20,000 nucleotides of DNA from an uncultured virus (IMG/VR IMGVR_UViG_3300046009_005838) (IMGVR_UViG_3300046009_005838), one strand, 5' to 3'; positions 3,358 to 20,000 are shown, counted from the first letter of the stretch. The notes: generated from the letters alone by a model not told the origin. Program-made: numbers and translations.

Positions 3358-3383
3358 GATTTCTTGGTTCTTATGTTATTTGT

Positions 3384-3391
3384 CAAAGGTA
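3384..3391 (-). promoter_or_regulatory. Bacteroidota -7 element (TACCTTTG)
   Basis: TAnnTTTG in the 38-nt intergenic gap, 26 nt upstream of ATG 3357. Confidence 0.55.
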
Positions 3392-3395
3392 AAAA

Positions 3396-3548: not shown

Positions 3549-3765
3549 TGTTTAAAGATTGAGTGAGCCTGTGAAGCTCGGTGAAAAGATTTTGAAGTTT
3601 TGCCGCTTTCTCTGGGAGCAAATGAAAGTCATCTGCCATCTCAGTTGAATGACTGATTACGACTTTCATTATGTCCCCATCGGAAACGCCCTTTTGTTCT
3701 GCCGCAGCCATCATGTCAACAATAGCCTGAAAAGAATCGTAGAACGAAATTTTTATTGAATCCAT
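3538..3765 (-). CDS. Hypothetical protein (75 aa)
   Basis: Start reassigned to ATG 3765 (MDSIKISF...), which overlaps the upstream stop as TAATG. Confidence 0.65.
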   Translation of the reverse strand: MDSIKISFYDSFQAIVDMMAAAEQKGVSDGDIMKVVISHSTEMADDFHLLPEKAAKLQNLFTELHRLTQSLNNGN

Positions 3766-5610: not shown

Positions 5611-6080
5611 GGTCTTATCGTTTTAAAGTCGTTTTCAAATGTACTTATTAATTCCTTCTTCTCTTCCTTCGTTGGATAAATGTAACGGAATATTGTCCTG
5701 AAATTAAAGTAGAGAAAGCCAAAGAATGATAGCGAAAACAAAACAGTAATTAGTGCCGCCTCTGCAACGTAATCCCACGTTTCCATAAACGGCAATGCTG
5801 CATAAGGATCTGTTTCTCTAATCCATTCCCTGATTAGATACACGCCACCAATAAGAACTAACGCCATTGGAGCGTCTGCAAATCTTTGAAGAAACCATTT
5901 TGTACCCGAATAGCCTTTTCTCAATCCAAACGAAAGTGCCTTCTTTCCAAAGTGGCCAATGAAAATAGATCCGTAGTAACCAACTACAACACAAGCCATG
6001 ATAACCACGAAGGCAATGCCAACAACTACACCAAAGATAGCCAGCATAATTAGTCCAGAACCTTTGAGTAAATCAAGCAT
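5520..6080 (-). CDS. Multi-pass membrane protein, putative holin
   Basis: About four hydrophobic segments. Immediately upstream of and overlapping the CHAP lysin. Confidence 0.6.
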   Translation of the reverse strand: MLDLLKGSGLIMLAIFGVVVGIAFVVIMACVVVGYYGSIFIGHFGKKALSFGLRKGYSGTKWFLQRFADAPMALVLIGGVYLIREWIRETDPYAALPFMETWDYVAEAALITVLFSLSFFGFLYFNFRTIFRYIYPTKEEKKELISTFENDFKTIRPWQRLMSIPLLFSLLLLLFWVALKVVKAVV

Positions 6081-6082
6081 AG

Positions 6083-8362
6083 TTAAGCCGGTTGTTGAGG
6101 TTGCTGTTGTGGTTGTTGCTGTTGCTGCATTTGTTGAGCCTCAATTCCTGCGACCTTGGCATCATAGCCCATAGCCGCCTTCACCATATCAGCTTCAACC
6201 TTTTTATCAGTGTTTGCACTTGCCGTCATAGCCTGCATTTCTGCGACTTGCTTGTTGGCATCAGTTACTTGCTTGGTATTAACCGCGCCCATGATCTTGT
6301 CAAACAATGCTTGGCCTTCCGCAGCCGCTTTGTTCTGTTGAACCTTCCAACTAACATAAGCCTTCATCTCAGACCATGTAGTCATGCTCTCAATCTTGAT
6401 AACATCTTCCATGTCAACCTGACCAGTCTGCATTAAGATTCTCAAGTCAGCAGATAATTGCTGCTTCTGTTTCTCGTCAACATAATCCTCAAAGTCAACC
6501 CGAACCAACAAGGTTTCGAAAAGTGACTTCTTCATTTCTTTCATGAAGAAAATGCCTCGTTCCCCAATTACTGATTCCGTCTGAGCAATATCGCCTCTAG
6601 CAACGCTGAGTTTCATTTGCTCAAGAGAATACTGCATAACGCCAGCCATAAATTGACCGTGAGCATAGTAAATGTACTGCATGTTATTCAACGATGCATC
6701 CATTGTCGCTTGCTGAGTATCGTAGCCAACATATCCCTTCTGAGTACCCAAGCCAATATCCGAAAGATTCAAAATATCCTTCATCATTGTTTCCTTCTGC
6801 TTCCAAAGATTCAGATAGCTCATTGCAATTGCTGCAGTTGACATATCGATCCGGTACATCGGAGGCTTATTGTTCGAAGGATTGTCCAAGTCCATATCTT
6901 GCGTTTCCACAAGAATCCTTGTCTTCTTGATTTCTTCAAGAGCCTCGAACGGAGTAGTCACATTCTGGAATGTTTCACCGCGAAGCCCCATCACAATCCC
7001 CATATCGAAACCAACCATCTCACGGAACTTGTAGTCCAGCATCGAAAGGTCATTCTGAGTCTGGCGAACTTGGTCAACAATAGATTTATTGTACCCTTGG
7101 TAAGTCTGTGGCTGAACGTAAAACAGTGGGCAAAATAATTGTGACTTGTCCATCGGGTTACGGATCTCATCGCAAATGCCTTCGTCAACAATCCATTTGT
7201 TCGCTATCAATGTAGCAGTTCTCCAAACCTCAACCATCTCCCCTTTAGCCTTTGATGAAGGGCTAACATAGAAAACTTTGTTGTTTGGATCATTCCTATC
7301 CGGCAACTCTCTAGTGTCAACAAGAGATTTCCAATAAGCCTTGCATACGGAAAGATTCTTGATCCGATCTTGGTCCATCTTGTACCATCCGAATCCCCAT
7401 CCGCCATATTGAACTTGGTTGGCAATAATAAACTCGCCATCGCAGTTTGCGATCTTGTTCATTACGTCCTTACCATACTTCTTCACTAATTGTTTTCCCC
7501 ACTTCGCTTGAATGTGGTTCGGAGTAAATGGACGAAGCCATCCTCTGAGAACATCATTGTGCCCAAAGTCATCATCTTCTAAAGACTGAGCAATCTGACA
7601 CCACGGTGGAACAATATCCCACGAAGGCCATCCGCCACGTTTAACAATATCAATCATCGCCCGACCTCCACCGATCACATGCATGATCGACTTAAATCCG
7701 GTTGTCGTGTAGTTGTTTTTTACTCTGATTTGATTCAGTAAATCCGTTCCGTAAATCTCTGCCGTAGTGGTCGGATTCTGAAAAAAGTATTTTTCAGCCT
7801 GCTCTTTTGAGTAAACATCTTGCCCTCCCGTTGGCTCGAATCGGATACCAAGTTCTTGAGCAAGTTCCTTGAAGAAAGGTGCTTGATCGTATTTTAAGTA
7901 AGCAAGTTTTAATCGCTTGTTGAGTTTGCTTTGAGCCTTTTGATCGTAAGACTTTACAACAGCTTTGCTTGAACGAAGTATTTTTAGATACTGGTTAGCA
8001 AGGTGACTTGTGAATCGCCAAACCTCTTTACCTGGTTGCCATGGTGCACCAATCTCTCCCCCTGCCTGAATCTGAGTCAAGAAACCCATATCTCGGTTGA
8101 TTTGATCTCCCTGAATATAAGTGAAGTTCTCCCAAGCACGGTCAGCCTCGCCCATTAGCCACCAAGGATTGTTTGCTAACTGATCACTTCCCGTTGCATT
8201 ATTCCTTTTGTTGAAAAAACTCGCAACGTATCGAACATTGTCAGCATACCAGTTGTCAAGCGGATTTTTGTCCCTAGCCGTTGAATAGTGTTTAATTATT
8301 TCATCCATCGACAAATCCTGTCGTGGCTGATAGCCTGAGAATATGTAGGTATTGTCGTTCAT
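6083..8362 (-). CDS. Probable portal protein (759 aa), reminiscent of crAss-like/Bacteroidota phage portals
   Basis: Size, the SIVDQVRQTQNDLSMLDYKFREMVGFDMG segment, the MKDILNLSDIGLG...VG...QATMDAS segment and a Gln-rich C-terminal tail are typical of portals. Confidence 0.72.
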   Translation of the reverse strand: MNDNTYIFSGYQPRQDLSMDEIIKHYSTARDKNPLDNWYADNVRYVASFFNKRNNATGSDQLANNPWWLMGEADRAWENFTYIQGDQINRDMGFLTQIQAGGEIGAPWQPGKEVWRFTSHLANQYLKILRSSKAVVKSYDQKAQSKLNKRLKLAYLKYDQAPFFKELAQELGIRFEPTGGQDVYSKEQAEKYFFQNPTTTAEIYGTDLLNQIRVKNNYTTTGFKSIMHVIGGGRAMIDIVKRGGWPSWDIVPPWCQIAQSLEDDDFGHNDVLRGWLRPFTPNHIQAKWGKQLVKKYGKDVMNKIANCDGEFIIANQVQYGGWGFGWYKMDQDRIKNLSVCKAYWKSLVDTRELPDRNDPNNKVFYVSPSSKAKGEMVEVWRTATLIANKWIVDEGICDEIRNPMDKSQLFCPLFYVQPQTYQGYNKSIVDQVRQTQNDLSMLDYKFREMVGFDMGIVMGLRGETFQNVTTPFEALEEIKKTRILVETQDMDLDNPSNNKPPMYRIDMSTAAIAMSYLNLWKQKETMMKDILNLSDIGLGTQKGYVGYDTQQATMDASLNNMQYIYYAHGQFMAGVMQYSLEQMKLSVARGDIAQTESVIGERGIFFMKEMKKSLFETLLVRVDFEDYVDEKQKQQLSADLRILMQTGQVDMEDVIKIESMTTWSEMKAYVSWKVQQNKAAAEGQALFDKIMGAVNTKQVTDANKQVAEMQAMTASANTDKKVEADMVKAAMGYDAKVAGIEAQQMQQQQQPQQQPQQPA

Positions 8363-8580
8363 ATAGACGACTTGGTTACATTATTTAAACTGATCCTACG
8401 CAAGTCGTGAATTTTCTGCATGCCAGAAACATCATTAGCGTCCTCAGTTTCTTTTGGGCTAACAACAGCAAAGGTTTGGATACCATCTTGCATGCTTCCC
8501 TCCATGAATATCCCATGGAAGTACCCATCAATCCAAGGCGTACTAGGTCTGTTATCTTTTTTGAAAAAACACTTCTTCAT
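8359..8580 (-). CDS. Hypothetical protein (73 aa)
   Basis: Start at ATG 8580 (MKKCFFKK). Stop overlaps the portal start (ATGA). Confidence 0.65.
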   Translation of the reverse strand: MKKCFFKKDNRPSTPWIDGYFHGIFMEGSMQDGIQTFAVVSPKETEDANDVSGMQKIHDLRRISLNNVTKSSI

Positions 8581-8585
8581 GGAAA

Positions 8586-8594
8586 GCAAATGTA
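8586..8594 (-). promoter_or_regulatory. Bacteroidota -7 element (TACATTTGC)
   Basis: TAnnTTTG ending 6 nt upstream of ATG 8580. The same 9-mer occurs at 13127-13135 and 14597-14605. Confidence 0.65.
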
Positions 8595-8608
8595 AAAGAA
8601 AAAATCAT

Positions 8609-9313
8609 TCAATTTAAAATTATTTCACCTTCAATCGGACAACAAAGCTCAGGATAAAATTCCCACGTTTCTGGAATCCAATTATTGCCTCCCCAAGCAG
8701 TAGAGTTTCTTCCCGCAACAACAATAGCATCCGTGCCGTTTATATTGTGCAGACCATGTATCGCCCCTCCATTTACCCAAGCTGAACATATCGGCTTTCT
8801 GATAATGGAATTGCGAATGATATTAGTTGTTTCGTAAATAATAATCTGTTGGCTTGCCAAAAGTGTCGTGCAAACATACATAGGAGCCTTGTGCCAACTG
8901 ACAATAAACCTACGAAATGGAGCCGCGCCATCAGTTCTGTAGTAAACATATTCCAATGGATTCGGACTCGCCCCTGCAATGCCAGTGTGAATGTCGTGAA
9001 ACGGTCCCATAATGCAGTTCTTTGGAATGAAAGGATTTGCCGTTGGTATTGCAAAGGGCGTGAAAGCAAATGGTTGCCCAGCAGAAAATGACACCCACCC
9101 ATTGCTGCCAATCCAAACTTGATTATATTTAATGCCCCAAAAGCAGAAGTCAAAGCCTATCGGAAACGGTCCGCGAACCTGATCGTCAGTATAGGCTAAC
9201 AATGTTCCTTGTGGAAGCGGCAAAGTATCAAAAGGAACTTGAGAAAAAGAATACGCTTGGCCATAAGCCTTTACGCTCATTGCGACAACAAATATTGCCG
9301 ACAGTAGCTTCAT
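8609..9313 (-). CDS. Secreted NIDO-like domain protein (234 aa)
   Basis: Signal peptide ending YG-Q. TDDQVRGPFPIGFDFCFWGIKYNQVWIGSNGWVSF...IMGPFHDI...APFRRFIVSW is the nidogen-like N-terminal module common in Bacteroidota T9SS cargo proteins. Confidence 0.75.
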   Translation of the reverse strand: MKLLSAIFVVAMSVKAYGQAYSFSQVPFDTLPLPQGTLLAYTDDQVRGPFPIGFDFCFWGIKYNQVWIGSNGWVSFSAGQPFAFTPFAIPTANPFIPKNCIMGPFHDIHTGIAGASPNPLEYVYYRTDGAAPFRRFIVSWHKAPMYVCTTLLASQQIIIYETTNIIRNSIIRKPICSAWVNGGAIHGLHNINGTDAIVVAGRNSTAWGGNNWIPETWEFYPELCCPIEGEIILN

Positions 9314-9912
9314 CAGTACGTTATGTGACGCTCAATCTTTATTGTAGAAAGTATCTGCTTGAAGTGCTCGTCCTTTGCTAGTTTCGCGTTACCGTTAGCA
9401 ATGCCTTGCTCATAAACATAGAACAAGTCGCCAATATCAATCGAGTCGGGCTGGTGCCGCCCAAGTGACATCGTTGCTGAATAAATTATAACCTTGTCTT
9501 TGAAGAACTCAGGATCTTTAGCCTTCAATGTTTCGATTCCAATAGCATTTGCCTCTGTGTCATTAGATGCTGGAACAATAGCCATCGCAGGATGAGTCAC
9601 CCCTTGAACAGGATCAGTAAACAATACCTGAACCACAAACGGAATCTTTCCTTTCGAGTAAGCATTCTTTAACTCTAGGTCAAACTGATATTGAGCTTCC
9701 GCATCTTTCTCAAAGTCCTCAAAAGATTCTTGTTGCTCCTTGAAATCAAAGAACAATCCAACAATCGAAGCTATCGAAAATCCCGTTCCCATTATTCCAG
9801 AGAACAAAATCATATCCACGTGACCAATGCCAATCGCCACCATCAAAGAAATCATTGATATCAGCGTTGCAGCAGCCGAAATTCGAGCAAGCAATATTCC
9901 GTTGTAGATCAT
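9313..9912 (-). CDS. Hypothetical membrane protein (two N-terminal TMs, 199 aa)
   Basis: ORF track, hydrophobic N-terminus, TGATG coupling. Confidence 0.75.
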   Translation of the reverse strand: MIYNGILLARISAAATLISMISLMVAIGIGHVDMILFSGIMGTGFSIASIVGLFFDFKEQQESFEDFEKDAEAQYQFDLELKNAYSKGKIPFVVQVLFTDPVQGVTHPAMAIVPASNDTEANAIGIETLKAKDPEFFKDKVIIYSATMSLGRHQPDSIDIGDLFYVYEQGIANGNAKLAKDEHFKQILSTIKIERHITY

Positions 9913-9932
9913 AACTGAGTCTTGTCTTCAAT

Positions 9933-10388
9933 TTATTCTTGAACAATTGCCGCTTTAGAAGCCTCCAAATATGGAGCTAGAAATTTTGACTTGTCAATCA
10001 CATTAGCATAGTGAGCAAGTTCATCAAAATCCCATTCGTTCTCCTTAATCACCAATCGCTGACGTTCCATAATAGACTTCGCCTCGGTAATGAATTCATT
10101 GGCGCGATCAATCTCAGCCTCCATGTACTTGTTCTCGGTTAGCAATCTATCGTGGTTCTGCCTCCAGCTAGTTGCCAACTCAGATTGCTCAAGAAATTCC
10201 TGTCGCGTTGGAGAAGCCGCAAGTTTCTTCTTGTACTGATCTTTCTGAACTGACTCAAGAGCCAACCTTCCCTTTACTTCTTTAAGCAAATGAAAGAGTC
10301 TGAATATCCGAAAGGCCATTACGAATACTGCCACTACCAAGACGGCAATGATTGAGATTGAGGTAAGTGCTTCTGTGGTCATTTGCAT
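9933..10388 (-). CDS. Single-TM coiled-coil protein (151 aa)
   Basis: N-terminal TM followed by a charged helical region. Confidence 0.75.
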   Translation of the reverse strand: MQMTTEALTSISIIAVLVVAVFVMAFRIFRLFHLLKEVKGRLALESVQKDQYKKKLAASPTRQEFLEQSELATSWRQNHDRLLTENKYMEAEIDRANEFITEAKSIMERQRLVIKENEWDFDELAHYANVIDKSKFLAPYLEASKAAIVQE

Positions 10389-10403
10389 TTAGTTAAAAGT
10401 TTC

Positions 10404-10411
10404 CAAAGATA
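10404..10411 (-). promoter_or_regulatory. Bacteroidota -7 element (TATCTTTG)
   Basis: TAnnTTTG in the 23-nt gap, 15 nt upstream of ATG 10388. Confidence 0.5.
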
Positions 10412-10798
10412 TTAATTTACAACTTCCTCAGTCACTTCAACATCAGACACCGGAAACTTTTTGCTCACAACATTCTCAAGATACCACTCAGAAAAAGCAA
10501 AGCCCCAAACCTGGCGAATCCCGTCATCAAAGTCAGCATCCTTGAGCAAGCCGCCCCGACCGTTTGCAGATACATAGCGAACAATTGCCAACCACTTCTT
10601 CCGTTGCTCGGTCAGAATGTGAGCAAGTGTCTTGTCGCTTTGGCGCTTCCGCTTTGCCCTCTCTTCCAAGACCTCGTGCTTGCAAAGATCCGTTAATACA
10701 TTACTGACCATTATACTGAATGGTTTGTCCTCCTGCTTCTTCATGCATTCATACATGCAAGCAACGATTTCTCTCGCGTGTTCTCTTGAGCGTTTCAT
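10412..10798 (-). CDS. Hypothetical protein (128 aa)
   Basis: ORF track. Packs tightly with its neighbours. Confidence 0.75.
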   Translation of the reverse strand: MKRSREHAREIVACMYECMKKQEDKPFSIMVSNVLTDLCKHEVLEERAKRKRQSDKTLAHILTEQRKKWLAIVRYVSANGRGGLLKDADFDDGIRQVWGFAFSEWYLENVVSKKFPVSDVEVTEEVVN

Positions 10799-10804
10799 AT
10801 TTAG

Positions 10805-11092
10805 TTATTGGGTTAAAATGGATAGTTTAAACTTCTCGGCAATCATAAATTCAAAGGACGCACCCTCGCTTCTCTCCCAGCCTTCGAGCATGTAAATGCA
10901 ATCGCAATCCATAAGAGCAATGATACACTCTTTCATGTAAGACTCCCAGCTCTTGTCGTGGTCGTGTGGCAAGTTCATCGGGTTGACAACTTCCATCCCC
11001 GCTGATTTCAGTCGGCATTCTGCTTCTGAAAAAGCAGCCCTCGCTTGCTCAATCGGTAACCCTGTGATCTGGCCTGCAATGTAAGTTTTCAT
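10805..11092 (-). CDS. DUF4406-like (nucleoside 2-deoxyribosyltransferase-fold) protein (95 aa)
   Basis: MKTYIAGQITG...F..AE..L...G..VVNP...WESYMKECI..LMDCDCIYML.GWE.SEGA..E. Start at ATG 11092 (ATGA overlap). Confidence 0.85.
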   Translation of the reverse strand: MKTYIAGQITGLPIEQARAAFSEAECRLKSAGMEVVNPMNLPHDHDKSWESYMKECIIALMDCDCIYMLEGWERSEGASFEFMIAEKFKLSILTQ

Positions 11093-11763
11093 GGTTGGTA
11101 AAGTTCTTTTAAATATTTTCCCCATTGGTTAGCCATTGCTTCGGCTATACCTGGAAATGTTTTTGATCTTACTTTGCTTCGTTCTGATGATTTGAGTTTA
11201 AAGGCATCTGCATACCATTTAGGCTGTCTTTTTAACTTGCCACTTTTACCATCAATCCATTCAAACATCTCACCCTTTCCAACGTGTGTTACTTCATCAT
11301 CAAATAAATTAGGAGATGAGTTATGATATAATGCTGGTAAGTTTTGTAGCCATAAACAAGTTGTCTTTTGCGCTTCGTCACCAAAAAAGTATGGCTGAAT
11401 TTTTTGTGTTGGTGGCTTATAAATCTTGCTCATTATTCCAATCGGATTCTCAATAGCAATATGTTTAATGGGAGCATTAACCATTGCCATAAAAAAATCA
11501 ATACCTTCTTGTTGCCGTCCGTCTGCCCTTTTCTTTTCGAAATGCGGAGCGCCCGAAACGGCCAAATGTGTGCAAGGAGGAAAAGCAATCATCGCATTCC
11601 ATCCGTCATTGATAATATCAAATACGCTTCCTTGGTAATGTTTAGCATCAGGGTTTCTGTTTGGCTGCAAGTCGCAGGACCAAGCATCAAATCCAAGTGC
11701 TTCAAATCGACCTCTGACTTCATCAGATTCTTCGCAAGCTATTAAAATGCGCAATTCGTTCAT
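11089..11763 (-). CDS. Phage DNA cytosine-C5 methyltransferase-like protein (224 aa)
   Basis: ILIACEESDEVR...AWSCD...IAFPPCTHLAVSGA (PC motif), IAIENP (ENV-like) and KTTCLWL...RSKTFPGIAEAMANQWG. Confidence 0.8.
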   Translation of the reverse strand: MNELRILIACEESDEVRGRFEALGFDAWSCDLQPNRNPDAKHYQGSVFDIINDGWNAMIAFPPCTHLAVSGAPHFEKKRADGRQQEGIDFFMAMVNAPIKHIAIENPIGIMSKIYKPPTQKIQPYFFGDEAQKTTCLWLQNLPALYHNSSPNLFDDEVTHVGKGEMFEWIDGKSGKLKRQPKWYADAFKLKSSERSKVRSKTFPGIAEAMANQWGKYLKELYQP

Positions 11764-12125
11764 GGTTGGTCGTTTTCGGTTTCGTCTGCAAATGGATTGT
11801 CTGAATTATCTCCAGTGTATTCTACGTACTCAGCATACATCTTAATCATCGCTGCTACGTTCACTCTGCCATTGGCTTTGATCTCATCTAAAATATCAGC
11901 AAGAAAAGCCTTGTGGTGACTATCTTGTTTCTTGACAAATATATACCCATTTGGCAAATAAAAAAAGGTGAAATCAAAATCTACAAAATCTTTAATCTCA
12001 TCCCTCATGTACTCCCAATAAACAGGCTTGCCAGCGCGAACCCTTCTGACATTCTTCTTAAACTCTTGGGTGTACACCACTTGCCTCCAGTTAGGCATCT
12101 TTTCTTTTTCTTGAGTAGCTTCCAT
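11760..12125 (-). CDS. Hypothetical protein (121 aa)
   Basis: ORF track. ATGA overlap with the MTase. Confidence 0.75.
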   Translation of the reverse strand: MEATQEKEKMPNWRQVVYTQEFKKNVRRVRAGKPVYWEYMRDEIKDFVDFDFTFFYLPNGYIFVKKQDSHHKAFLADILDEIKANGRVNVAAMIKMYAEYVEYTGDNSDNPFADETENDQP

Positions 12126-12127
12126 TT

Positions 12128-13120
12128 TTACAGTAGTCTAAATTTTTTAACATCCCGAAGGCATGATGAATGAAGTCTTAAATTGCTCGGATTCAAATAA
12201 GGCTCAGATTCAGTCGGCAATAGTTCCAAGGTTACAGAATCATAGTACCTCAAAGGATTGTTCACGCTGTGAAAGATTCGGCACTCAGAGCAAGCGTTAA
12301 ACTTGAAGTCAGCGTTGACATAATCTCTTATCCTGTCGTACTTCGGACTTCGAATATCCTTCACGTATTTCGAATACTTCCTAGTGTAAACCCTAGCCTT
12401 TTCCCGTCTGCATTTCTTGCAATCATAATGCATCGCAGTCACCCTTCCTCTCGCAGCGGCTAATGGCGTTACTCGCTTGCTAAATTCATCCAACGGATAA
12501 TAATCAGCGCAAGTGTTGCATTGTCTTTCGCCTTCCTTCAAGTCGTCAATCCGTTCGTTGTCCTCAACAGATCCTTTTGCCCTCGTGTCACGTTCCTTCT
12601 GTGGGCTATCCTTGTCTGCTAGAATCAACTTTCTGGTTTTGCTTGAAGTTCGCCTCGCGCCACCTCGCTTCGGTCGCTTAGAGAACATCTCCTGCGCGCA
12701 ATCATTACAGAAGAAGTAGGCATTCTTAAACTTGCTGTTAGATGCAAAGACAGAATAAGGTTTGGTAGCATTCTTATCCTCGTAAGCATAAGAGATTTCT
12801 TCATTCTCACTACCGCATCTTTGACATGGACATTCCGAGAGAACAAATACATTGTACCTTGCCATCTTCAAATACCTCTCAGCAGACAATCTTGACTTAG
12901 GTAAGAACGTGCTTAGAGTTAGCATATAAGTGTGAGGAACTTTCAATGCCTGAGTTGGCATATCCTCGTGCGGATCTACACCGTCACACTCTCTGCAATA
13001 CTTGTTGACATACTCTTTCCCGTGGGCAAAATCATTCATCGGTTTAGCCTTGCAACACTTGGTGCAATACTTCTTTGGTCCTTCTAAAAATAGCCTCGGT
13101 AGCTGGGTTAAAATGCTCAT
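12128..13120 (-). CDS. Multi-CxxC zinc-finger protein, possibly degenerate HNH-associated (330 aa)
   Basis: CTKC/CREC, CQRC/CNDC, CNTC/CKKC and CSEC/HSSC pairs. First gene of the leftward arm. Confidence 0.75.
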   Translation of the reverse strand: MSILTQLPRLFLEGPKKYCTKCCKAKPMNDFAHGKEYVNKYCRECDGVDPHEDMPTQALKVPHTYMLTLSTFLPKSRLSAERYLKMARYNVFVLSECPCQRCGSENEEISYAYEDKNATKPYSVFASNSKFKNAYFFCNDCAQEMFSKRPKRGGARRTSSKTRKLILADKDSPQKERDTRAKGSVEDNERIDDLKEGERQCNTCADYYPLDEFSKRVTPLAAARGRVTAMHYDCKKCRREKARVYTRKYSKYVKDIRSPKYDRIRDYVNADFKFNACSECRIFHSVNNPLRYYDSVTLELLPTESEPYLNPSNLRLHSSCLRDVKKFRLL

Positions 13121-13126
13121 GATTGG

Positions 13127-13135
13127 GCAAATGTA
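13127..13135 (-). promoter_or_regulatory. Leftward-arm promoter -7 element (TACATTTGC)
   Basis: TAnnTTTG ending 7 nt upstream of ATG 13120. Confidence 0.7.
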
Positions 13136-13582
13136 AATATTTGTATTTAAAAATCAAAATCACACCCCCTCTGGATCGAAGCCCCGAAGAGTTATAAATT
13201 CTATGTGTGCTTAGATATAAAAGGAAAGCAAACAAAAATAATCCCTATGAGAATTTTTAAGAAACAATGTTATGAAAAGTTATATAATTCAGAATCAAAA
13301 GTATAGTACACTTTTAAAACTAAAAAATATATAATTTTCAAAGTGTGTTTCAAAAAAGTACTCCAAGTCATTCTTTGACATCTTAATCCCCAACAAATAA
13401 AGGTAGTCTAACTAAAAATAATGTTCCAGACAATCGGATTCAATCTGAAAAATCCTTAGTTTAAAAGTGTAAACTGCAACCTTTGACATCCCAAATGTAT
13501 TAGCACAATGCAACTTTGTGTTATCACTTTTATCCAAATGTGTAAACAGTTTAATACCTCTTGCCATCCCAAATCACTAAAA

Positions 13583-13640
13583 CTATTAGACACTTTCTTC
13601 TCTTTTTGCCCTTTTTCAGCCAAATTCTATTAGACACTTT
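13583..13640 (+). repeat. 14-bp direct repeat CTATTAGACACTTT x2
   Basis: Copies at 13583-13596 and 13627-13640. Confidence 0.85.
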
Positions 13641-14236
13641 TTGTCACAACTAACCCAAACAACCAAAAATGACCTCTTTTTACCCTCTTTTTTTTGTAAC
13701 TCATTGACAACCAAATACCCAACTCACGAACATTTACACTTTTATGCGTTTTTGGATTTTGCCGTTTTTAACATGCTATTATATGTAACTCTTTTTAAAG
13801 CATAGTTCGTAAATTTATTTGAAACGTATCGCGCAGGGGTAGAGTATATACTGTACCCAGACGGGCCGGCGGGCAAAAAAAACAGCCCCACCCACCTAAC
13901 CCACCCCACCCCCTCGAGAAAAACGCAAACCAAACCAAACAACGACACAGAAAAAAAGAAAATCGAAACCCGAACCCACGCAAGCAAGCATACATACATA
14001 AGAACCACAAAGAACCGCGCCCGCCCGCCTGCCAACATAGAAAGAAACCGACACAACCGAACCATTGTATCGGAAAAGGATCGGACCAACAGCACGACAA
14101 TAGGAAACCAGGCAAACCAGATCATGCAAACGGGCAAACCTGCAGAAGATCGAAAGAAAATTTCCTTTACAAGACCAATCCGCCAACCAAACCAACCCAA
14201 ACCACCGGCAAAGGACCAAGAGAGAGAACCACCAAA

Positions 14237-14344
14237 CAGAACATAATTTTGTGGGACAGGTAAAAGCAGAATAAAATTTTGTATTAAAAGGTAAATGCAG
14301 AACAATATTTTGTTTAACACAGAAAGGACGAAACATTATTTTGT
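14237..14344. repeat. Four phased ~16-bp repeats, consensus CAGAACAWWATTTTGT
   Basis: Starts at 14237, 14267, 14298 and 14329 (30/31/31 bp period). Confidence 0.85.
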
Positions 14345-14354
14345 TAGCCAATAT

Positions 14355-14414
14355 TTTAGGCAGATCTAAAAAAATTTTTAGACTCGTCTAAATTTATTTT
14401 TAGGCTTGTCTAAA
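14355..14414. repeat. Three 16-bp palindromes TTTAG-N6-CTAAA at 22-bp period
   Basis: TTTAGGCAGATCTAAA 14355-14370, TTTAGACTCGTCTAAA 14377-14392 and TTTAGGCTTGTCTAAA 14399-14414. Confidence 0.9.
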
Positions 14415-14596
14415 TTTTTTTACAAGGTCCTGAGAACCTGCGAACCTTTGCCAACATTATATATAAGAACCCAAAAAGTAAACGTTTATATAAATATGCA
14501 AATTAAACGCATTGATTTTCAACCACTTACAAAAATAGCCTATTTATTACTGCAATTATTTTGAGTAAGTAGTAGGATATATCAAAACAACTTTTG

Positions 14597-14605
14597 TACA
14601 TTTGC
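14597..14605 (+). promoter_or_regulatory. Rightward (early) promoter -7 element (TACATTTGC)
   Basis: TAnnTTTG 44 nt upstream of the first plus-strand ATG (14649). No clean -33 TTTG seen. Confidence 0.7.
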
Positions 14606-14648
14606 TCAACTTAAAACCAGGGCAGAAGCCCACAAAAGACCAAACAAT

Positions 14649-14816
14649 ATGAAAACATCTAGAATCTTTGCCGCATTTCTTTTCATGTACTGCCCTTGCG
14701 CCCTTTACATGATATTGACAGCCCCGAACGCGCCTACCCTTGCGCTTGTTATTTTCAGCATCATGATATTGATAGTCATGTTTTTTGCGGGCAAAATCTT
14801 AGTTAACAAATATTAA
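14649..14816 (+). CDS. Small two-TM membrane protein (55 aa)
   Basis: Manual translation MKTSRIFAAFLFMYCPCALYMILTAPNAPTLALVIFSIMILIVMFFAGKILVNKY. Variant motif AAAGACC upstream. Confidence 0.65.
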   Translation: MKTSRIFAAFLFMYCPCALYMILTAPNAPTLALVIFSIMILIVMFFAGKILVNKY

Positions 14817-14851
14817 TTTTCAACCAGGCACCCGCCACAATTCAAACGACC

Positions 14852-15172
14852 ATGATAACCACCACCACCACCACCGAAACTGTAACACCTCAACAGTTCA
14901 CAAGAGTAAACAACGACACAAACGGAAACCCCCGATATGTTATACACTTTTTAAACTTATCAAAAGATGAAGACAGGATAAGCATAAACGCTCAATATCC
15001 AGGATATTTAACAAGCACAAGCCTTTTATATTCAATAGCCTTAAAACGCGCCAAAAAGATAGGAGGAAAAAAATTTCACAACAAGCAATACGGCGGCGGC
15101 ATAGTTTTTCAATCTTACAACATACAGGCAACAGCCGACAGAATAAACGAACTACTAACAACAGGTAAATAA
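14852..15172 (+). CDS. Phage hypothetical protein (106 aa)
   Basis: AAACGACC-ATG start. FTRVNNDTNGNPRYVIHF...GGKKFHNKQYGGGIVFQSYN looks like a conserved phage early-protein motif. Confidence 0.85.
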   Translation: MITTTTTTETVTPQQFTRVNNDTNGNPRYVIHFLNLSKDEDRISINAQYPGYLTSTSLLYSIALKRAKKIGGKKFHNKQYGGGIVFQSYNIQATADRINELLTTGK

Positions 15173-15193
15173 TAACCCCCAAACAAAACGACC

Positions 15194-15592
15194 ATGAAAA
15201 CGACCAACAAACAGCACCCGATTTTTGCCTACTTAATTAACCAACTACCAACCGTTCAAGAAATTACCAACGAATACGGGCCAGAAGTTGAAGACACGAT
15301 ACAGAGCCGCCTTAATTTTGTTGTTAGAACCTTTGAGCAAGAATATTGCTACCCTGAGAACCTGAAAAGATACGGCAACAAAACGCGCACCCTTGAAAAC
15401 TGGTTCAGGGGCCTACCTTCAATCTATTCTATTGAATACAGAAACCATGCAATTTTAGAAATTGCCCAAGAAATGGGAGCGCTAAAGCCAAACGCAACCG
15501 AAGCCCAAGAACAGAAAATCCTAGACAACTGGTTTAACTTTGTCGCCGTGAAATTTGCCCAACTTTGCAAGTTTAACAAGGTAGAATTCTAA
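15194..15592 (+). CDS. Phage hypothetical protein (132 aa)
   Basis: AAACGACC-ATG start. WFRGLPS...N..IL motif. Confidence 0.85.
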   Translation: MKTTNKQHPIFAYLINQLPTVQEITNEYGPEVEDTIQSRLNFVVRTFEQEYCYPENLKRYGNKTRTLENWFRGLPSIYSIEYRNHAILEIAQEMGALKPNATEAQEQKILDNWFNFVAVKFAQLCKFNKVEF

Positions 15593-15601
15593 ATCTATTT
15601 T

Positions 15602-15649
15602 TCCCGTTAGCAACGAGCGAAGCCGGAGCGATACCGGCAGCGGGAGCCA
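15602..15649 (+). ncRNA. tRNA-like mini-helix (acceptor stem + T-arm + GCCA)
   Basis: TCCCGTT(15602-08)/AGCGGGA(15639-45) 7-bp stem, GCCGG-AGCGATA-CCGGC 5-bp stem with 7-nt loop, then G-CCA. No D or anticodon arm. Confidence 0.55.
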
Positions 15650-15663
15650 ACTAAACGACCACC

Positions 15664-15837
15664 ATGAAAAATCTAATTTTAGAACTTGCAGAAATTGCCA
15701 ACGAGCAAAGAAACAGCCTAATAATGGAAAAGCAGAACGCAACAAGCGAAGAAGCTAAAAAAGTAGTTCAATCTATGATTGATGAAGTAAACAACACCCT
15801 TGACAAAGTAAACGCGAAGTACAAAACAAACTACTAA
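15664..15837 (+). CDS. Hypothetical helical protein (57 aa)
   Basis: Manual translation MKNLILELAEIANEQRNSLIMEKQNATSEEAKKVVQSMIDEVNNTLDKVNAKYKTNY, preceded by AAACGACCACC. Confidence 0.8.
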   Translation: MKNLILELAEIANEQRNSLIMEKQNATSEEAKKVVQSMIDEVNNTLDKVNAKYKTNY

Positions 15838-15848
15838 ACGCCCTCAAC

Positions 15849-16061
15849 ATGATAACGACCACGCAACCAATTTACAACGGCCTAAGCATACGACAAATAA
15901 TTGGCCGCCTTCATCCTGAGATGATAAAACAACACCGCAAAGAATACCTGAAAAATTGTATTGAAGTTTACAAGAACGAGAAAGCCGGCACCAATCTAAC
16001 ATGGAACCAGGCCGCAAGAAATAGCAATTTCAACTTAATACTTTTTTACTTGAAATCATGA
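15849..16061 (+). CDS. Hypothetical protein (70 aa)
   Basis: ORF track. Motif lies inside the first codons. Confidence 0.8.
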   Translation: MITTTQPIYNGLSIRQIIGRLHPEMIKQHRKEYLKNCIEVYKNEKAGTNLTWNQAARNSNFNLILFYLKS

Positions 16062-16231
16062 AGACCGCCAAAGAAACGCCCTATCTTCAGTCATTAAGAA
16101 GAAGACTAAAACACGCGCAAGAACATGAAAGCCAAAGTAAAAACATTGAAGACATACAAAACAGAATTGATACATGGACAAGCAAGCCCGAAGCCGATCT
16201 AAATTTTTTTAAGTACACACCAAAAAATTGA
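16058..16231 (+). CDS. Hypothetical protein (57 aa)
   Basis: Manual translation MKTAKETPYLQSLRRRLKHAQEHESQSKNIEDIQNRIDTWTSKPEADLNFFKYTPKN. ATGA overlap. Confidence 0.7.
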   Translation: MKTAKETPYLQSLRRRLKHAQEHESQSKNIEDIQNRIDTWTSKPEADLNFFKYTPKN

Positions 16232-16235
16232 CAAC

Positions 16236-16694
16236 ATGAAAACGACCAAATTTTCAACCCTTGACTGGAAAGATAAAACAATGTTCACCGGCAAAAAAGT
16301 AACTAGTTTATTTATTGACAACATCGAAACGAATATTTATTTTTTTGAGAACGACACAGAAGCCGAAGCGAAAGCCCGCAAGACCGCCAATTTAATACAA
16401 CGCGGAGAAATTTACCCACAAGACGGAAACTGGAAATTTTTTGATATTTGCGGACACATTGAATACAAGATCGAAGCAATAGAAGAAACCGAAGAAAGCC
16501 CAGGAGCATTTAATAACCTAGTAAGCAGATCAGGCCACCCAATACCACAAGAGAAGAAACAGGAAATTATTGACAGCTTAATAGGTAAAACCGAGCACTC
16601 GCAGTGGATTAAAATGTACGACAAGAGCCTCAACAAGCTCAACAAACTTTGCATCAAATTTTACCCATACGGATACACTGTATTTTTCAAATAA
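16236..16694 (+). CDS. Hypothetical protein (152 aa)
   Basis: ORF track. The MKTT start encodes the motif. Confidence 0.8.
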   Translation: MKTTKFSTLDWKDKTMFTGKKVTSLFIDNIETNIYFFENDTEAEAKARKTANLIQRGEIYPQDGNWKFFDICGHIEYKIEAIEETEESPGAFNNLVSRSGHPIPQEKKQEIIDSLIGKTEHSQWIKMYDKSLNKLNKLCIKFYPYGYTVFFK

Positions 16695-16712
16695 CCCAAA
16701 CGACCGCAGCAC

Positions 16713-16919
16713 ATGAAAACCGAAGCAATTGAGATTGAAGACCTTTTCAACACCCCTGAGAAATTGCCCACCGAAGTACAGATCATCCTGGAAAACTTTG
16801 CAGAACGTGAGCAAACCTATGAGAACTGCCAACAGTTAGAACAAGCACTCAGGCCCCACGGCTACACTTTTAGTTGGGGCCTAGATGCAGAACCATACGA
16901 CCTAAGAAAAACAAACTAA
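16713..16919 (+). CDS. Hypothetical protein (68 aa)
   Basis: Motif upstream. DLF..PE.LP.EVQ.IL...GYTFSWGLDAEPYDLR pattern. Confidence 0.85.
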   Translation: MKTEAIEIEDLFNTPEKLPTEVQIILENFAEREQTYENCQQLEQALRPHGYTFSWGLDAEPYDLRKTN

Positions 16920-16943
16920 CAAACCACCAAAACGACCAAAGCC

Positions 16944-17144
16944 ATGATTAAAGGAGAAAAAACAAACTTTTTTACAGACGTAAAATTGCCAGTACATGCC
17001 GGAATGAAATACCAAAACGGCAAAATAATAGATTACAAAATCAAAAAAGTAGGACATGAAATTTATCGCCACTACTTTGACACCGAAGAGAAAGATTGCC
17101 AGGTAGGAAGCGAAAAGATCAAAAGAGTAATTTATTCAAATTAA
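16944..17144 (+). CDS. Hypothetical protein (66 aa)
   Basis: ORF track. Motif upstream. Confidence 0.75.
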   Translation: MIKGEKTNFFTDVKLPVHAGMKYQNGKIIDYKIKKVGHEIYRHYFDTEEKDCQVGSEKIKRVIYSN

Positions 17145-17241
17145 GCCAATCTAAGCAATCCAGACCCCGAAACCATACCAACACACCGCCCAAACAATAA
17201 AACAACGGCACAAGCCACCAAACAACCAAAAAACGACCACC

Positions 17242-17472
17242 ATGGACCAATTTATTTTAAGAGAAAATGTATTGACAGATAATACATTGATCGTAGCAAG
17301 CAAAGGAAAAATTTTCAAAGGAGGATATATTGCAATCCTAAAAGAATACACCTATCAAAACGCTTGGACTGATAAGGAAGAGATAAAAAAATTCAAAAGC
17401 AAAGAAAGACTTTTGAAATATATCAAATCATTTTACCCTGATTTCGACTTAATGGACATTGAATTAAATTAA
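17242..17472 (+). CDS. Hypothetical protein (76 aa)
   Basis: ORF track. AAACGACCACC-ATG start. Confidence 0.8.
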   Translation: MDQFILRENVLTDNTLIVASKGKIFKGGYIAILKEYTYQNAWTDKEEIKKFKSKERLLKYIKSFYPDFDLMDIELN

Positions 17473-17495
17473 ACAAACGACCAAAACCCAAACCA

Positions 17496-17672
17496 ATGAC
17501 AACGACCAACAATTTAGGAACTTACCATGATAGATGGTTCAAGACCTACAAAGGGAAAATATATAAAAACACGCCCACAGACATAAACACCGCAATAAAC
17601 AACAAGGCAATAATTGACAACACGAAGCCAGTAAAAGCTATTTTAACAATCTCAAAAACGACCAACCAATGA
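17496..17672 (+). CDS. Hypothetical protein (58 aa)
   Basis: Manual translation MTTTNNLGTYHDRWFKTYKGKIYKNTPTDINTAINNKAIIDNTKPVKAILTISKTTNQ. ATGA overlap with the next gene. Confidence 0.7.
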   Translation: MTTTNNLGTYHDRWFKTYKGKIYKNTPTDINTAINNKAIIDNTKPVKAILTISKTTNQ

Positions 17673-17974
17673 CAACCAACCACACCGCAGGACCATGGAC
17701 CTACAAAGATAGTTTTGAGCTAAATGTAATCCAAAAGAATAACCCAGAAGCCGAAGCAATTTGCGAAGTAACAGGCAACCCCGCAGAACAATTTGCCAAC
17801 GTCCGATTAATAGCAGCAGCTCCCGAACTTTTGGCAGCATTGATCGAAGCCCAAAATCTTGTTAATCTTTGCCGCCAGTATATGCCGAAATCTATAAAAA
17901 ACAGCGACCGTTTTACATTTGAGAACACCGCAGCCAACATAATCGACAAAGCCATCCAAACCGCAGTTAAATAA
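17669..17974 (+). CDS. Phage protein of the HTxGPW...ANxRLIAAAPELL type (101 aa)
   Basis: HTAGPW and ANVRLIAAAPELLAAL motifs, common in phage early regions. Function unknown. Confidence 0.85.
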   Translation: MTTNHTAGPWTYKDSFELNVIQKNNPEAEAICEVTGNPAEQFANVRLIAAAPELLAALIEAQNLVNLCRQYMPKSIKNSDRFTFENTAANIIDKAIQTAVK

Positions 17975-17995
17975 CGACCAAACCCAAACGACCAA

Positions 17996-18457
17996 ATGAA
18001 GACCTTACACGAACTTAAAGTAGCAGAAGTAGAACTAACCTACAAAAGCAAAATAAAGCCATCAGAACGCCCCAAAGTAATTAATTCAGACCAAGTAAAC
18101 GAAATATTACAGGCAGCATTTGACCAGGATAAGATAGAACACGTTGAAATGTTCTATTTATTACTACTCAACAGAGATAACAAAGTTTTAGGAGTTAAAA
18201 AAGTAAGCGAAGGCGGGACCGCCTCAACAATAGTGGACCCAAAGATCATTTTTCAGACCGCATTGAAAGCAAACGCGAGCGCAATAATTTTGTCGCATAA
18301 CCACCCCAGCGGAAACCCAAGGCCAAGCGATGCAGACAAAGCAATAACAAAACAGATAAGCGAAGGAGGAAGGATACTCAACATTTCAGTTTTGGACCAT
18401 GTAATTGTGCTACCTGAAAACAAGTTCTATTCATTTTCAGATAACCAACTAATGTAA
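17996..18457 (+). CDS. radC: RadC-like JAB/MPN domain protein (153 aa)
   Basis: E.F.LLLLNR.NKVLG...SEGG...VDPKIIF..AL...A..IILSHNHPSG...PS..D..IT......LDHVI. Confidence 0.93.
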   Translation: MKTLHELKVAEVELTYKSKIKPSERPKVINSDQVNEILQAAFDQDKIEHVEMFYLLLLNRDNKVLGVKKVSEGGTASTIVDPKIIFQTALKANASAIILSHNHPSGNPRPSDADKAITKQISEGGRILNISVLDHVIVLPENKFYSFSDNQLM

Positions 18458-18463
18458 ACGACC

Positions 18464-18652
18464 ATGACAGCAGATAAAATTAAACATTACATAGGCGAAC
18501 AAGTATTCGACCACATTTGCAGCCTTGACAAACAAAATCTGGAAACAATGAAGCGGAACATAATTTCCGACATAAACAACATAAAACACGATTCAAAAAC
18601 ACTTTTCAAGAGAACCATAGAACTTGAATTCATCAAAAACAGACTTTCTTAA
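18464..18652 (+). CDS. Hypothetical protein (62 aa)
   Basis: TAA-ACGACC-ATG junction. Confidence 0.8.
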   Translation: MTADKIKHYIGEQVFDHICSLDKQNLETMKRNIISDINNIKHDSKTLFKRTIELEFIKNRLS

Positions 18653-18659
18653 AACGACC

Positions 18660-18947
18660 ATGATAGCACAAGGATACCACCCGACCGCCAGAACTTATGC
18701 CAACGTAGAAACGCAGCAAAAGTTCAAAATGTACCAGCACCAAGATACCAAAGAATTGAAGCTGATAGACGAGCAAACGCACGAAGAAGCAAACAGTTTT
18801 TATACGTGTGCTTTCACTGATTGCGAAGTGAAACTAAATACCGGAGAGATCGTAAGCCTACGACAAGGAACATTTTTCGCACAAACCGCAGATCGGAAAG
18901 TAATTGCCAGGAAGTTCTTCATGGAAAAACGATTCAGAAAAATATAA
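18660..18947 (+). CDS. Hypothetical protein (95 aa)
   Basis: Start reassigned to the ATG directly after AAACGACC (MIAQGYHP...). Confidence 0.8.
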   Translation: MIAQGYHPTARTYANVETQQKFKMYQHQDTKELKLIDEQTHEEANSFYTCAFTDCEVKLNTGEIVSLRQGTFFAQTADRKVIARKFFMEKRFRKI

Positions 18948-18952
18948 CGACC

Positions 18953-19105
18953 ATGATAGCCTACTCAGTAACAATAGACACCGGCAAAGGACCGCAGACT
19001 TACAGGACCTTTGCCGACACCAAAGCCGAAGCAAAATCAAAAGTTTGCGCCTTCATGCAGACCGAACCAAACTCAATTCATTCAGTTAAAAAACTAAAGA
19101 ACTAA
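18953..19105 (+). CDS. Hypothetical protein (50 aa)
   Basis: Start reassigned to TAACGACC-ATG (MIAYSVTIDTGKG...). Confidence 0.8.
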   Translation: MIAYSVTIDTGKGPQTYRTFADTKAEAKSKVCAFMQTEPNSIHSVKKLKN

Positions 19106-19111
19106 ACGACC

Positions 19112-19354
19112 ATGAGCAAGAACATAACATTGACAACGCAAGGAATTAAAGGCGGCAGCGCCAAAGTTCAGAACGTAGGATATTGCCTACTTGAATTAAG
19201 ACACGACCAAGACCGCATAACCGTTGATGATTTTGAAGGAAGCGGAGCAAATTACAAGCAAAGAGAACAGCAGAAAATTCAGATCATTGAAAACGGAGCA
19301 ATTCTTTTTGAGGGAACTAAATACGAACTTTTTGAAATACTTAAAAAAGCATAA
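19112..19354 (+). CDS. Hypothetical protein (80 aa)
   Basis: TAA-ACGACC-ATG junction. Confidence 0.8.
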   Translation: MSKNITLTTQGIKGGSAKVQNVGYCLLELRHDQDRITVDDFEGSGANYKQREQQKIQIIENGAILFEGTKYELFEILKKA

Positions 19355-19355
19355 C

Positions 19356-19625
19356 ATGCAAACGACCGAACTAAGAGTAACAGACACCGCAGGAGGACAC
19401 CAATTTGCTATCGTTGATGATAGCACAGGACAAGACATTGCCCTCGTTTATAATCGTAACGAAGACAGCAGAAAGACCGCGCAACTTCTGGCAGCAGCCC
19501 CAACCATGCTAACGGAGCTGTTGCACGTATCGGAAAGAATCGGAACAGTCCGACCTGATGATGCGTTTTGCCAAGCACTAAAACAAATTATTGACCAAGC
19601 AATCCAAAAAGCCACACAGCTATGA
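19356..19625 (+). CDS. Second AAAP-motif protein (89 aa), probable paralog of 17669-17974
   Basis: Start reassigned to ATG 19356 (MQTTELR...). AQLLAAAPTML...IIDQAIQKA. Confidence 0.8.
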   Translation: MQTTELRVTDTAGGHQFAIVDDSTGQDIALVYNRNEDSRKTAQLLAAAPTMLTELLHVSERIGTVRPDDAFCQALKQIIDQAIQKATQL

Positions 19626-19852
19626 ATGCAGGAGCAAAAAGGATAAACCCAAGCGGACGGGCAAAGATTGACACCGCGAAAAACCTGATAAGATTTTCAA
19701 CATCACCGTTTGACGGTGGTGGATTCGTAAAGACTGCAATTTCAGAACTTAGAAAAGAAGGAATTGAAATAATTTACGATAAAAATAAATGCAGATACTA
19801 CAACACCAAAACAATCTCCTCAATTTGGGGATATAACACCACCAACCTATGA
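19622..19852 (+). CDS. Hypothetical protein (76 aa)
   Basis: ORF track. ATGA overlaps at both ends. Confidence 0.7.
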   Translation: MNAGAKRINPSGRAKIDTAKNLIRFSTSPFDGGGFVKTAISELRKEGIEIIYDKNKCRYYNTKTISSIWGYNTTNL

Positions 19853-19992
19853 AATCATTCATTCAATCCAGGATCCACAACCGCATAAATGCCAGGGCAG
19901 CAGCCAAGGCAAACCAATGCCAACTCTACACACATTCAGACGTGATGTTTTTACGCCAAATAAAACCAATTATAGCAGCATTAAAAGCCTGA
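19849..19992 (+). CDS. Hypothetical protein (47 aa)
   Basis: Manual translation MKSFIQSRIHNRINARAAAKANQCQLYTHSDVMFLRQIKPIIAALKA. ATGA overlap. Confidence 0.55.
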   Translation: MKSFIQSRIHNRINARAAAKANQCQLYTHSDVMFLRQIKPIIAALKA

Positions 19993-20000
19993 TATATGCC

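Follow-up and report, generated by a model that had tools for sequence, protein, structure and literature searches.

Why does a phage carry, between two small genes, a short GC-rich hairpin that resembles the upper half of a tRNA and ends in CCA, and what might it do there? The question arises at positions 15602-15649 of a 20,000-nucleotide stretch of DNA from an uncultured virus (IMG/VR IMGVR_UViG_3300046009_005838), called here, in its whole length, the window. An initial annotation of this site had read a 48-nt tRNA-like mini-helix with an encoded CCA and had proposed either an mRNA-processing or mRNA-stabilising element or an anticodon-less tRNA decoy against tRNA-targeting defences.

The element and its genomic setting

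The window appears to derive from the genome of an uncultured phage of lake water. Positions 1-13200 hold larger minus-strand genes, including those for an endolysin-like protein, a DNA methyltransferase, an HNH protein, and a DUF4406 protein, and a run of small plus-strand genes begins near 14400. A 185-aa protein encoded on the minus strand (1866-2423) has a CHU_C type IX secretion sorting domain (32 bits, cutoff 27), which is unusual phage cargo, and no Shine-Dalgarno words were found ahead of the window's genes; from these two features we infer that the host is probably a member of the Bacteroidota. The element occupies most of a 71-nt spacer (15593-15663) between two small genes of the ORF list on the same (plus) strand, an upstream gene of 132 aa (15194-15592; PHROG 11100, function not known) and a downstream gene of 57 aa without family assignment (15664-15837). 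About 56 nt of this spacer are missing from related contigs.

Direct reading reproduced the annotated sequence and coordinates exactly. The site (15602-15649, plus strand) forms the core of a Y-shaped RNA of ∼46 nt with three helices, which begins 9 nt past the upstream stop codon. The closing stem pairs TCCCGTT (15602-15608) with AGCGGGA (15639-15645) in 7 bp with a single G-U (T15607-G15640); its 5′ strand is supported by direct reading and RNAfold, and the stem covaries with AACCGCC/GGCGGTT in IMG/VR sequences. A 13-nt arm, the linker (15609-15621), contains a 2-bp mini-hairpin (G15610-C15618 and C15611-G15617) with the loop AACGA (15612-15616). It leads into an inner hairpin, GCCGG-AGCGATA-CCGGC (15622-15638), with a 5-bp stem (15622-15626/15634-15638) and a 7-nt loop (15627-15633), which the 3′ strand of the closing stem adjoins with zero gap, so the longest coaxial stack in the element is 12 bp (7 + 5). 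A GCCA tail follows (15646-15649, comprising G15646 and CCA at 15647-15649).

RNAfold returned the proposed structure together with the 2-bp mini-stem in the linker, at −18.1 kcal/mol (z = −2.07; 8 of 200 shuffles were as stable), so that the stacked 7-bp and 5-bp helix with its 7-nt loop holds by both reading and folding. In a 101-nt context the fold is weaker relative to shuffles (z = −0.81; 42 of 200 equally good), and the opposite strand of the element folds at z = −0.06. The window's most GC-rich 45-nt stretch (GC = 0.69) lies here, and the element is the second most stable 56-nt plus-strand fold across 13200-20000. The strongest local fold of the early region is elsewhere, at 16836-16891 on the plus strand (−22.7 kcal/mol), inside the ORF at 16713-16919; it also occurs in two related loci (−18.8 in L004, −21.1 in L006) and may be a structured RNA inside a coding region.

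How unusual is such a geometry by chance? A descriptor of 7 bp and 5 bp stacked, a 7-nt loop, a linker of 0 to 25 nt, and at most one G-U was scanned against the window and 300 Markov shuffles on both strands. The element was the sole site in the window that matched. The geometry without a CCA requirement is expected 0.75 times per window, with at least one match in 52% of shuffles, and with NCCA it is expected 0.003 times (1 of 300 shuffles). Helix geometry alone is therefore not unusual; the apparent rarity came from the CCA, and conservation had to decide.

Other identities for the spacer were set aside. On the plus strand, the frame running through the element has no start codon, and it is closed in locus L002, the only close relative to carry the element. 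A 74-aa minus-strand ORF (15521-15745) lies antisense to a pair of conserved genes, and the 56-nt indel would shift its frame. A promoter-like match at 15573-15601 scores 9/12, in a search that found 16 matches against 14.3 expected, and its −10-like word is absent in L002.

The word AACGACC noted 4 nt past the CCA is present at 15654-15660. It is part of AAACGACC (15653-15660), the start-proximal word of most plus-strand early genes, and belongs to the start region of the downstream gene, outside the hairpin, whose end is 18 nt from that gene's start codon. More broadly, (A)AACGACC stands directly before the ATG, or at most ∼12 nt before it, in 13 of 21 candidate plus-strand early genes and just after the ATG in 5 more. 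These plus-strand sites span 14846-19367 (for example 14846, 15188, 15655, 17233, 18458, 18654, 18947, and 19106), with a single minus-strand site at 11773. The shorter ACGACC occurs 21 times on the plus strand of 14400-20000 against 2.3 expected (maximum of 8 in 1,000 shuffles) and only twice on the plus strand of 1-14399. The word is frequent in related loci as well. It is no Shine-Dalgarno word and might act as an early-gene signal in translation, processing, or recombination. The idea that the mini-loop of the element copies whichever translation-start word is in local use (AACGA here, but GAGGA where phages have Shine-Dalgarno words) was rejected, as many IMG/VR members have GAGAA, and it is weakened further by the commonness of AACGA-type words in the region.

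Further sequence features lie around the early genes. The AT-rich divergent control region at 14230-14422 contains four AACA(T/A)(A/T)ATTTTGT-type words (direct repeats D2, D7, and D14), which resemble the Bacteroidota −7 promoter box, with its consensus TAnnTTTG, and nested inverted repeats TTTAGGC..GTCTAAA lie at 14350-14421; these words and repeats are likely to be early promoters with operators. An imperfect inverted repeat (15555-15573/15683-15701; 19 nt, 74%) with the exact core TGCAAGTT/AACTTGCA has its arms on either side of the spacer, in the 3′-terminal part of the upstream gene and the 5′-terminal part of the downstream one. The linker word CAACGAGCGAAG recurs inside the downstream gene at 15699 and 15740, with one mismatch each.

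Close relatives and the tRNA reading

Thirteen proteins of the collection searched are related to the upstream protein (58 to 91% identity), and their alignment led to six metagenome loci. The element is present in L002 (88% protein identity), which is the sole close relative with it. In L003, L004, and L006 (81 to 83%), both flanking genes are joined by TAA-CTAAATACTGACAAC-ATG only, and these empty sites form a 56-column gap in the alignment with the window. A contig from sequencing run X18 (word depth of 100) has the same empty junction, passing from 15592 to 15663 with 14 other letters between, and a contig from run X15 matches the filled form without differences, covering the element to 15618 only. 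The contig from run X12 stops short of the element, and that from RNA run X20 covers the downstream gene only (15665-15888) in a divergent variant. Because the same flanking genes occur without the element in L003, L004, L006, and X18, the element is optional within its lineage, and because these relatives do without it, any function must be dispensable.

Comparison of the filled and empty sites showed no clean target-site duplication or terminal repeats, and no second copy of the element was found in the window or the related loci. A MITE-like mobile insertion was rejected on these grounds, as a single copy without terminal inverted repeats and target-site duplication. Compared with L002 to L007, the early region (14800-18500) is a mosaic of small gene cassettes with shared blocks that are 76 to 98% identical; whole genes are missing from these loci or stand in a different order, and the breakpoints coincide with gene borders. 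In L004, for instance, 16061-16740 and 17244-17973 are missing, and in L007 the 57-aa gene lies ∼900 nt upstream of the 132-aa gene.

Wider searches for close relatives returned little. INPHARED contained no close phages, a 2.6-kb query giving only a 93-nt match at 74%, and 76-nt and 87-nt queries with the element gave no meaningful match there. In IMG/VR, neither the flanking proteins nor longer exact words from the element led to any relatives, and the upstream protein had no relatives in a collection of one genome per species. A covariance model search of 151 genomes from the phylum of a Chitinophagaceae MAG gave a best E value of 0.006 per genome; we read these matches as noise, since the alignments are ridden with mismatches and none is a tRNA.

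The pair of window and L002, the only two sequences in the window's own subfamily, proved informative. They differ at 6 of 48 positions without a single broken pair. T15607 is C in L002, turning U-G into C-G, and two double compensations (G15610A with C15618T and C15611G with G15617C) preserve the mini-stem, a prediction made from the window sequence only. Under random substitution the probability of no broken pair is 0.037 and that of at least two double compensations is 0.001, with the caveat that adjacent double changes could be single template-switch events. The inner hairpin (15622-15638) is identical in both, as are all 29 nt of 15619-15647, compared with differences at 33 of 133 third codon positions (∼25%) in the adjacent gene, although recent exchange of the element between these mosaic phages could also have reduced the divergence. 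The flanks immediately outside the closing stem have diverged. The L002 copy folds in the same way (z = −2.99; 1 of 200 shuffles equally good), and its tail reads GCAA through the change C15648A, so that the CCA is lost. This pattern speaks for selection to maintain the fold and against any to maintain the CCA.

The features specific to tRNAs fared less well than the shape. ARAGORN called no tRNA or tmRNA gene, and no Rfam tRNA-clan model matched at E ≤ 10 (3.5-kb and 86-nt queries) or E ≤ 1 (whole window). The consensus of a T-loop is U54, U55, C56, a purine at 57, and A58, and the loop contains a U54-A58 pair. The loop AGCGATA has A at position 54 and G at position 55, and its relatives vary at positions that are fixed in T-loops; it is not a T-loop. 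The encoded CCA likewise fails: it is CAA in L002 and absent from all 118 IMG/VR members described below, among the matches listed, so the CCA of the window copy looks accidental. Other T-arm-like words in the window number 6 against 6.3 expected, with no excess. An origin as a copy of a host tRNA 3′ end, of the attachment-site type, was rejected because a search for GCCGG-N7-CCGGCAGCGGGAG in one genome per bacterial species gave at least 120 loci, none of which overlaps a tRNA gene among the matches listed. Nor did the suggestion of an anticodon-less tRNA decoy gain support, as the nearest relatives with the same flanking genes lack the element. The tRNA-mimic reading is thus mostly refuted; what survives is the shape of 12 stacked pairs and a 7-nt loop, which is strict across the family.

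A wider family in IMG/VR phages

A search of IMG/VR with the exact 17-nt inner hairpin yielded 26 loci. Twelve are GC-rich coding contexts with 0 to 4 Watson-Crick pairs at the corresponding geometry, and the other 14 share the whole design in the same order: a stop codon, AACCGCC or AGCCGCC, a 13-nt arm, the inner hairpin, GGCGGTT without a gap, and a T-run. In these 14 loci the arm forms a GCA-GAGGA-TGC mini-hairpin (3 bp, 5-nt loop). As this link was found with a word derived from the window, part of the similarity follows from the search, and a model built from window and L002 alone was used to measure the remainder: it scored IMG/VR members with the same 17-mer at 34 to 38 bits over the full length and the twelve unrelated 17-mer loci at 20 to 22 bits, and the similarity therefore extends well past the search key. 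A search by neighboring genes, independent of the 17-mer, recovered members with other loops.

A degenerate pattern then gave at least 119 loci in IMG/VR, of which 118 were analyzed. Among the matches listed, all seven closing pairs occur at the same spacing in 109 of 118, at least three T's stand in the six bases past the stem in 114, and CCA follows the stem in none. The loops are ATCACTA (at least 90), ACCGATA (at least 18), AGCGATA (at least 5), and others (at least 6), again among the matches listed. Loop position 1 is A in every member listed, positions 2, 4, and 5 vary (position 5 being A or C), position 3 is C, and position 4 is a purine.

Window, L002, and six distinct IMG/VR variants align without gaps. 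In these eight rows, 97.5% of cells are paired, and 5 of 15 pairs have changed on both sides; the covariation score was reached by none of 500 shuffles, and slid partners pair at 29 to 58%. The inner stem is invariant in all eight rows, and compensatory changes support every other helix. Wobble cells are all G-U on the plus strand, with no A-C; the family model scores 64 to 77 bits on the plus strand versus 10 to 15 bits on the minus strand, and the orientation relative to the flanking genes is constant throughout the IMG/VR members. The confinement of G-U to the plus strand and the constant orientation point to a sense-strand RNA. Conservation and covariation, which the initial annotation had listed among its checks, were both found, and the compensatory changes and the relatives support a real structured element in the sense-strand transcript. 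Rfam 15 does not contain the family and gave no significant match. Judged from these alignments, the element is a member of an uncatalogued family of terminator-like hairpins between small phage genes.

The IMG/VR phages that carry the family differ from the window in having GGAGG-type ribosome-binding words. Their elements follow the stop codons of many small genes, in at least 41 upstream and at least 62 downstream sequence contexts, and the downstream small proteins of the two phage groups show no homology (hhalign probability of 1.5%). The slot upstream of one 55-aa gene holds this element in some contigs and hairpins with T-loop words (GGTTCGATTCC, GGTTCAATTCC) in others. In the latter the closing stem abuts the hairpin and a T-run follows, and Rfam aligns them weakly (12 to 16 bits) to the T-arms of tmRNA and mascRNA; against our family model they score 10 to 12 bits (E = 0.25 to 0.65), without detectable homology. 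Locus L181 is a chimera of a family element and a T-loop-word hairpin, recombined inside the element.

The same phages also carry type II hammerhead ribozymes between small genes (55 to 62 bits, gathering score of 37), at 531-600, 766-833, and 872-939 in L163, 299-368 in L164, 334-403 in L165, and, on the minus strand, 2203-2272 in L162 and 1906-1975 in L166. Weaker tandem hammerhead copies score 27 to 29 bits. Separately, L167 and L170 to L186 (∼40 to 100 nt upstream of position 601) and L163 (1230-1290) contain classes of intergenic hairpins that resemble tRNAs without an anticodon arm. Their closing stem measures 5 to 7 bp; a 4-bp mini-hairpin (e.g., TGCA-GGCGG-TGCA) occupies the short arm, and a 6- to 8-bp stem bearing a T-loop word (TTCGATT, TTCAATT, or TTCAACG) precedes the T-run. 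ARAGORN called none of them, and they may represent processing signals, terminators of tRNA origin, or relics of attachment sites.

Possible roles and known systems

The reading we favor, with a little less than even confidence, is that the element is a terminator-derived intergenic hairpin at a cassette junction and that this copy most likely acts on 3′-end stability, pausing, or processing. In the IMG/VR relatives, a hairpin and T-run after a stop codon would work as an intrinsic terminator or attenuator and insulate the gene cassettes. The window copy has no U-tract after the hairpin, the stem being followed by GCCAACTAAACG, and the terminator scan omits the site; terminator action is therefore not predicted for it. 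Lacking the U-tract and being optional, it most likely would not terminate efficiently and might instead serve the message of the upstream gene as a stable 3′ hairpin, that is, as a pause site or a barrier to exonucleases, or alternatively as a processing landmark that uncouples the two genes. Its presence in the window would reflect cassette exchange. A processing or stabilising role in the mRNA, as first suggested for the site, is compatible with all observations. Processing by RNase III was rejected: a site of the T7 early-region type needs about two turns of double-stranded RNA, and the longest coaxial stack here is only 12 bp. The invariant inner stem, conserved even across apparently different host types, is not explained by a plain terminator and hints at sequence-specific recognition or spread by recombination.

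Spread by recombination could be pushed further, making the element a shared patch of DNA at cassette borders where genes are swapped, gained, and lost, with the window copy a leftover of little or no RNA function. We regard this as rather unlikely. It would account for presence and absence at one site among contigs 81 to 88% identical in the neighboring protein, for mosaic gene order with breaks at gene borders, for the many different genes flanking IMG/VR members, and for the chimera L181, and the invariant inner stem fits copying by recombination better than independent selection; PeSL cassettes supply a precedent (PMC4122927; PMC2839356). Yet with a single copy in the window and none further in related loci, there is no partner to recombine with here, the filled and empty sites show neither target-site duplication nor terminal repeats, and the window-L002 compensations and strand-specific G-U pairs argue for selection on the folded sense strand. 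Recognition of sequence by a protein, at an RNA operator or the DNA palindrome GCCGG-N7-CCGGC (for example, an antiterminator or translational repressor site regulating the neighbors), is improbable in our estimation. An inner stem that is constant in eight of eight rows while the loop and other helices vary is what sequence-read half-sites would show, and the hairpin ends close ahead of the downstream start codon, but the two phage groups share no candidate protein, their downstream small proteins being nonhomologous, relatives with the same genes dispense with the element, and G-U pairs and fixed orientation argue against a double-stranded DNA site. That the hairpin is a functionless accident in a GC-rich scrap of foreign DNA is highly improbable, even though its geometry without CCA is to be expected at the frequency given above, its fold is unremarkable in context, and it is optional: the compensatory changes in L002, the gapless match of the whole architecture to a large IMG/VR family, and the absence of differences over 29 nt where third codon positions differ at about one in four all speak against chance.

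A tRNA-shaped processing signal stays live because the shape is that of RNase P model substrates. Here the stacked helix would be read as the top half of a tRNA, by RNase P at the 5′ side and by RNase Z or exonucleases at the 3′ side, cutting the early multigene transcript between cassettes and freeing a small RNA that a CCA-adding enzyme could complete. The strict geometry is in its favor: besides the nearly universal seven closing pairs, the matches listed all have an inner stem of 5 bp that directly abuts the closing stem and a loop of 7 nt. The loop, in which position 3 remains C and position 4 a purine, also favors it. The alternation with canonical T-loop-word hairpins in the slot of the 55-aa gene, their weak alignment to tmRNA and mascRNA T-arms, and the chimera of both hairpin kinds point the same way, and the intergenic hammerheads in the same contigs imply that cutting of transcripts between genes is already part of the design of these phages. 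RNase P cleaves acceptor/T-stem-loop hairpins efficiently and also acts on the phage M3 and C4 RNAs (PMC11143913). Set against this are the unconserved CCA, the lack of any tRNA or tmRNA call or tRNA-clan Rfam match, T-arm-like words at chance level in the window, and true T-loop hairpins that are not detectably homologous to the family; moreover, A at loop position 1 with A or C at position 5 in the members listed makes a U54-A58 pair impossible. On balance we consider such a signal unlikely. A bolder version, in which phages of unrelated hosts mark early cassettes with tRNA-shaped junctions lacking an anticodon arm and read by shape by RNase P, RNase Z, and the CCA-adding enzyme, as a counterpart of mitochondrial tRNA punctuation beside the hammerheads, and in which the window copy is freed as a small capped-off RNA, is decidedly unlikely; were it true, the window copy, which alone among those seen already ends in GCCA, could soak up tRNA-3′-end enzymes or toxins.

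Returning to the favored reading, this compact three-helix RNA, which is not in Rfam 15, occurs at no fewer than 118 loci in phage contigs and in a lake phage whose style of translation start differs, and it occupies the junctions at which small phage genes are swapped. If an insulator, terminator, or processing role were confirmed, it would help to explain how shuffled early genes stay expressible, and the RNA could be a small portable part for separating genes in synthetic operons. The case also counsels caution in motif hunting, as an RNA can copy the top half of a tRNA in shape, and CCA by accident, without the features that define the family.

Among known systems, intrinsic terminators and protective stem-loops share with the element a GC-rich sense-strand hairpin directly past a stop codon and, in 114 of the 118 relatives among the matches listed, a T-run. 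Unlike a terminator, which needs none of these features, the element branches into three helices, has arms of fixed length, and keeps its inner stem invariant, and the window copy lacks a U-tract and lies inside a run of same-strand genes. The T-arm-bearing hairpins of the same IMG/VR phages resemble it in slot, order of parts, 7-nt loop, and T-run and differ in their canonical T-loop words, 6- to 8-bp inner stems, and family-model scores of 10 to 12 bits. The best Rfam alignment, to the D12-methyl RNA (RF02950), has CGUU..AACG, a GCCGG/CCGGC stem, and a GCGGGA tail in common with the element; it is not significant (11.9 bits against a gathering score of 57, with E = 2.9 on 86 nt only), and the first hairpin of that RNA is not kept in L002. 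The model RNase P substrates built from an acceptor and T-stem-loop (McClain, Guerrier-Takada, and Altman, 1987, as described in PMC11143913) have, like the element, 12 stacked bp (7 + 5), a 7-nt loop, and a single-stranded 3′ tail (GCCA in the window), from which it departs in having no T-loop, no CCA in any relative among the matches listed, and an extra 13-nt arm with a mini-hairpin. PeSL stem-loops of T4-type phages, as PMC2839356 and PMC4122927 describe them, terminate transcription, serve as recombination points, and combine a strong sigma-70 promoter with a stem-loop in many repeats per genome. In keeping with those accounts, the element is a conserved intergenic stem-loop whose surroundings are plastic and made up of small genes, most of them orphans; it lies at borders where genes have been inserted, deleted, or replaced, and it has recombined internally (L181). 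It differs from the PeSLs so described in being single copy, with a promoter-like match within chance, no sequence relation to them, and a phage that is not of the T4 type. Literature searches covering D12-methyl, tRNA-like, RNase Z, and phage intergenic topics found no description of the element. The branched, strictly dimensioned form with its invariant inner stem is thus not described in Rfam or the literature found, whereas the kind to which it belongs, a hairpin or terminator between genes at cassette junctions, is a known one.
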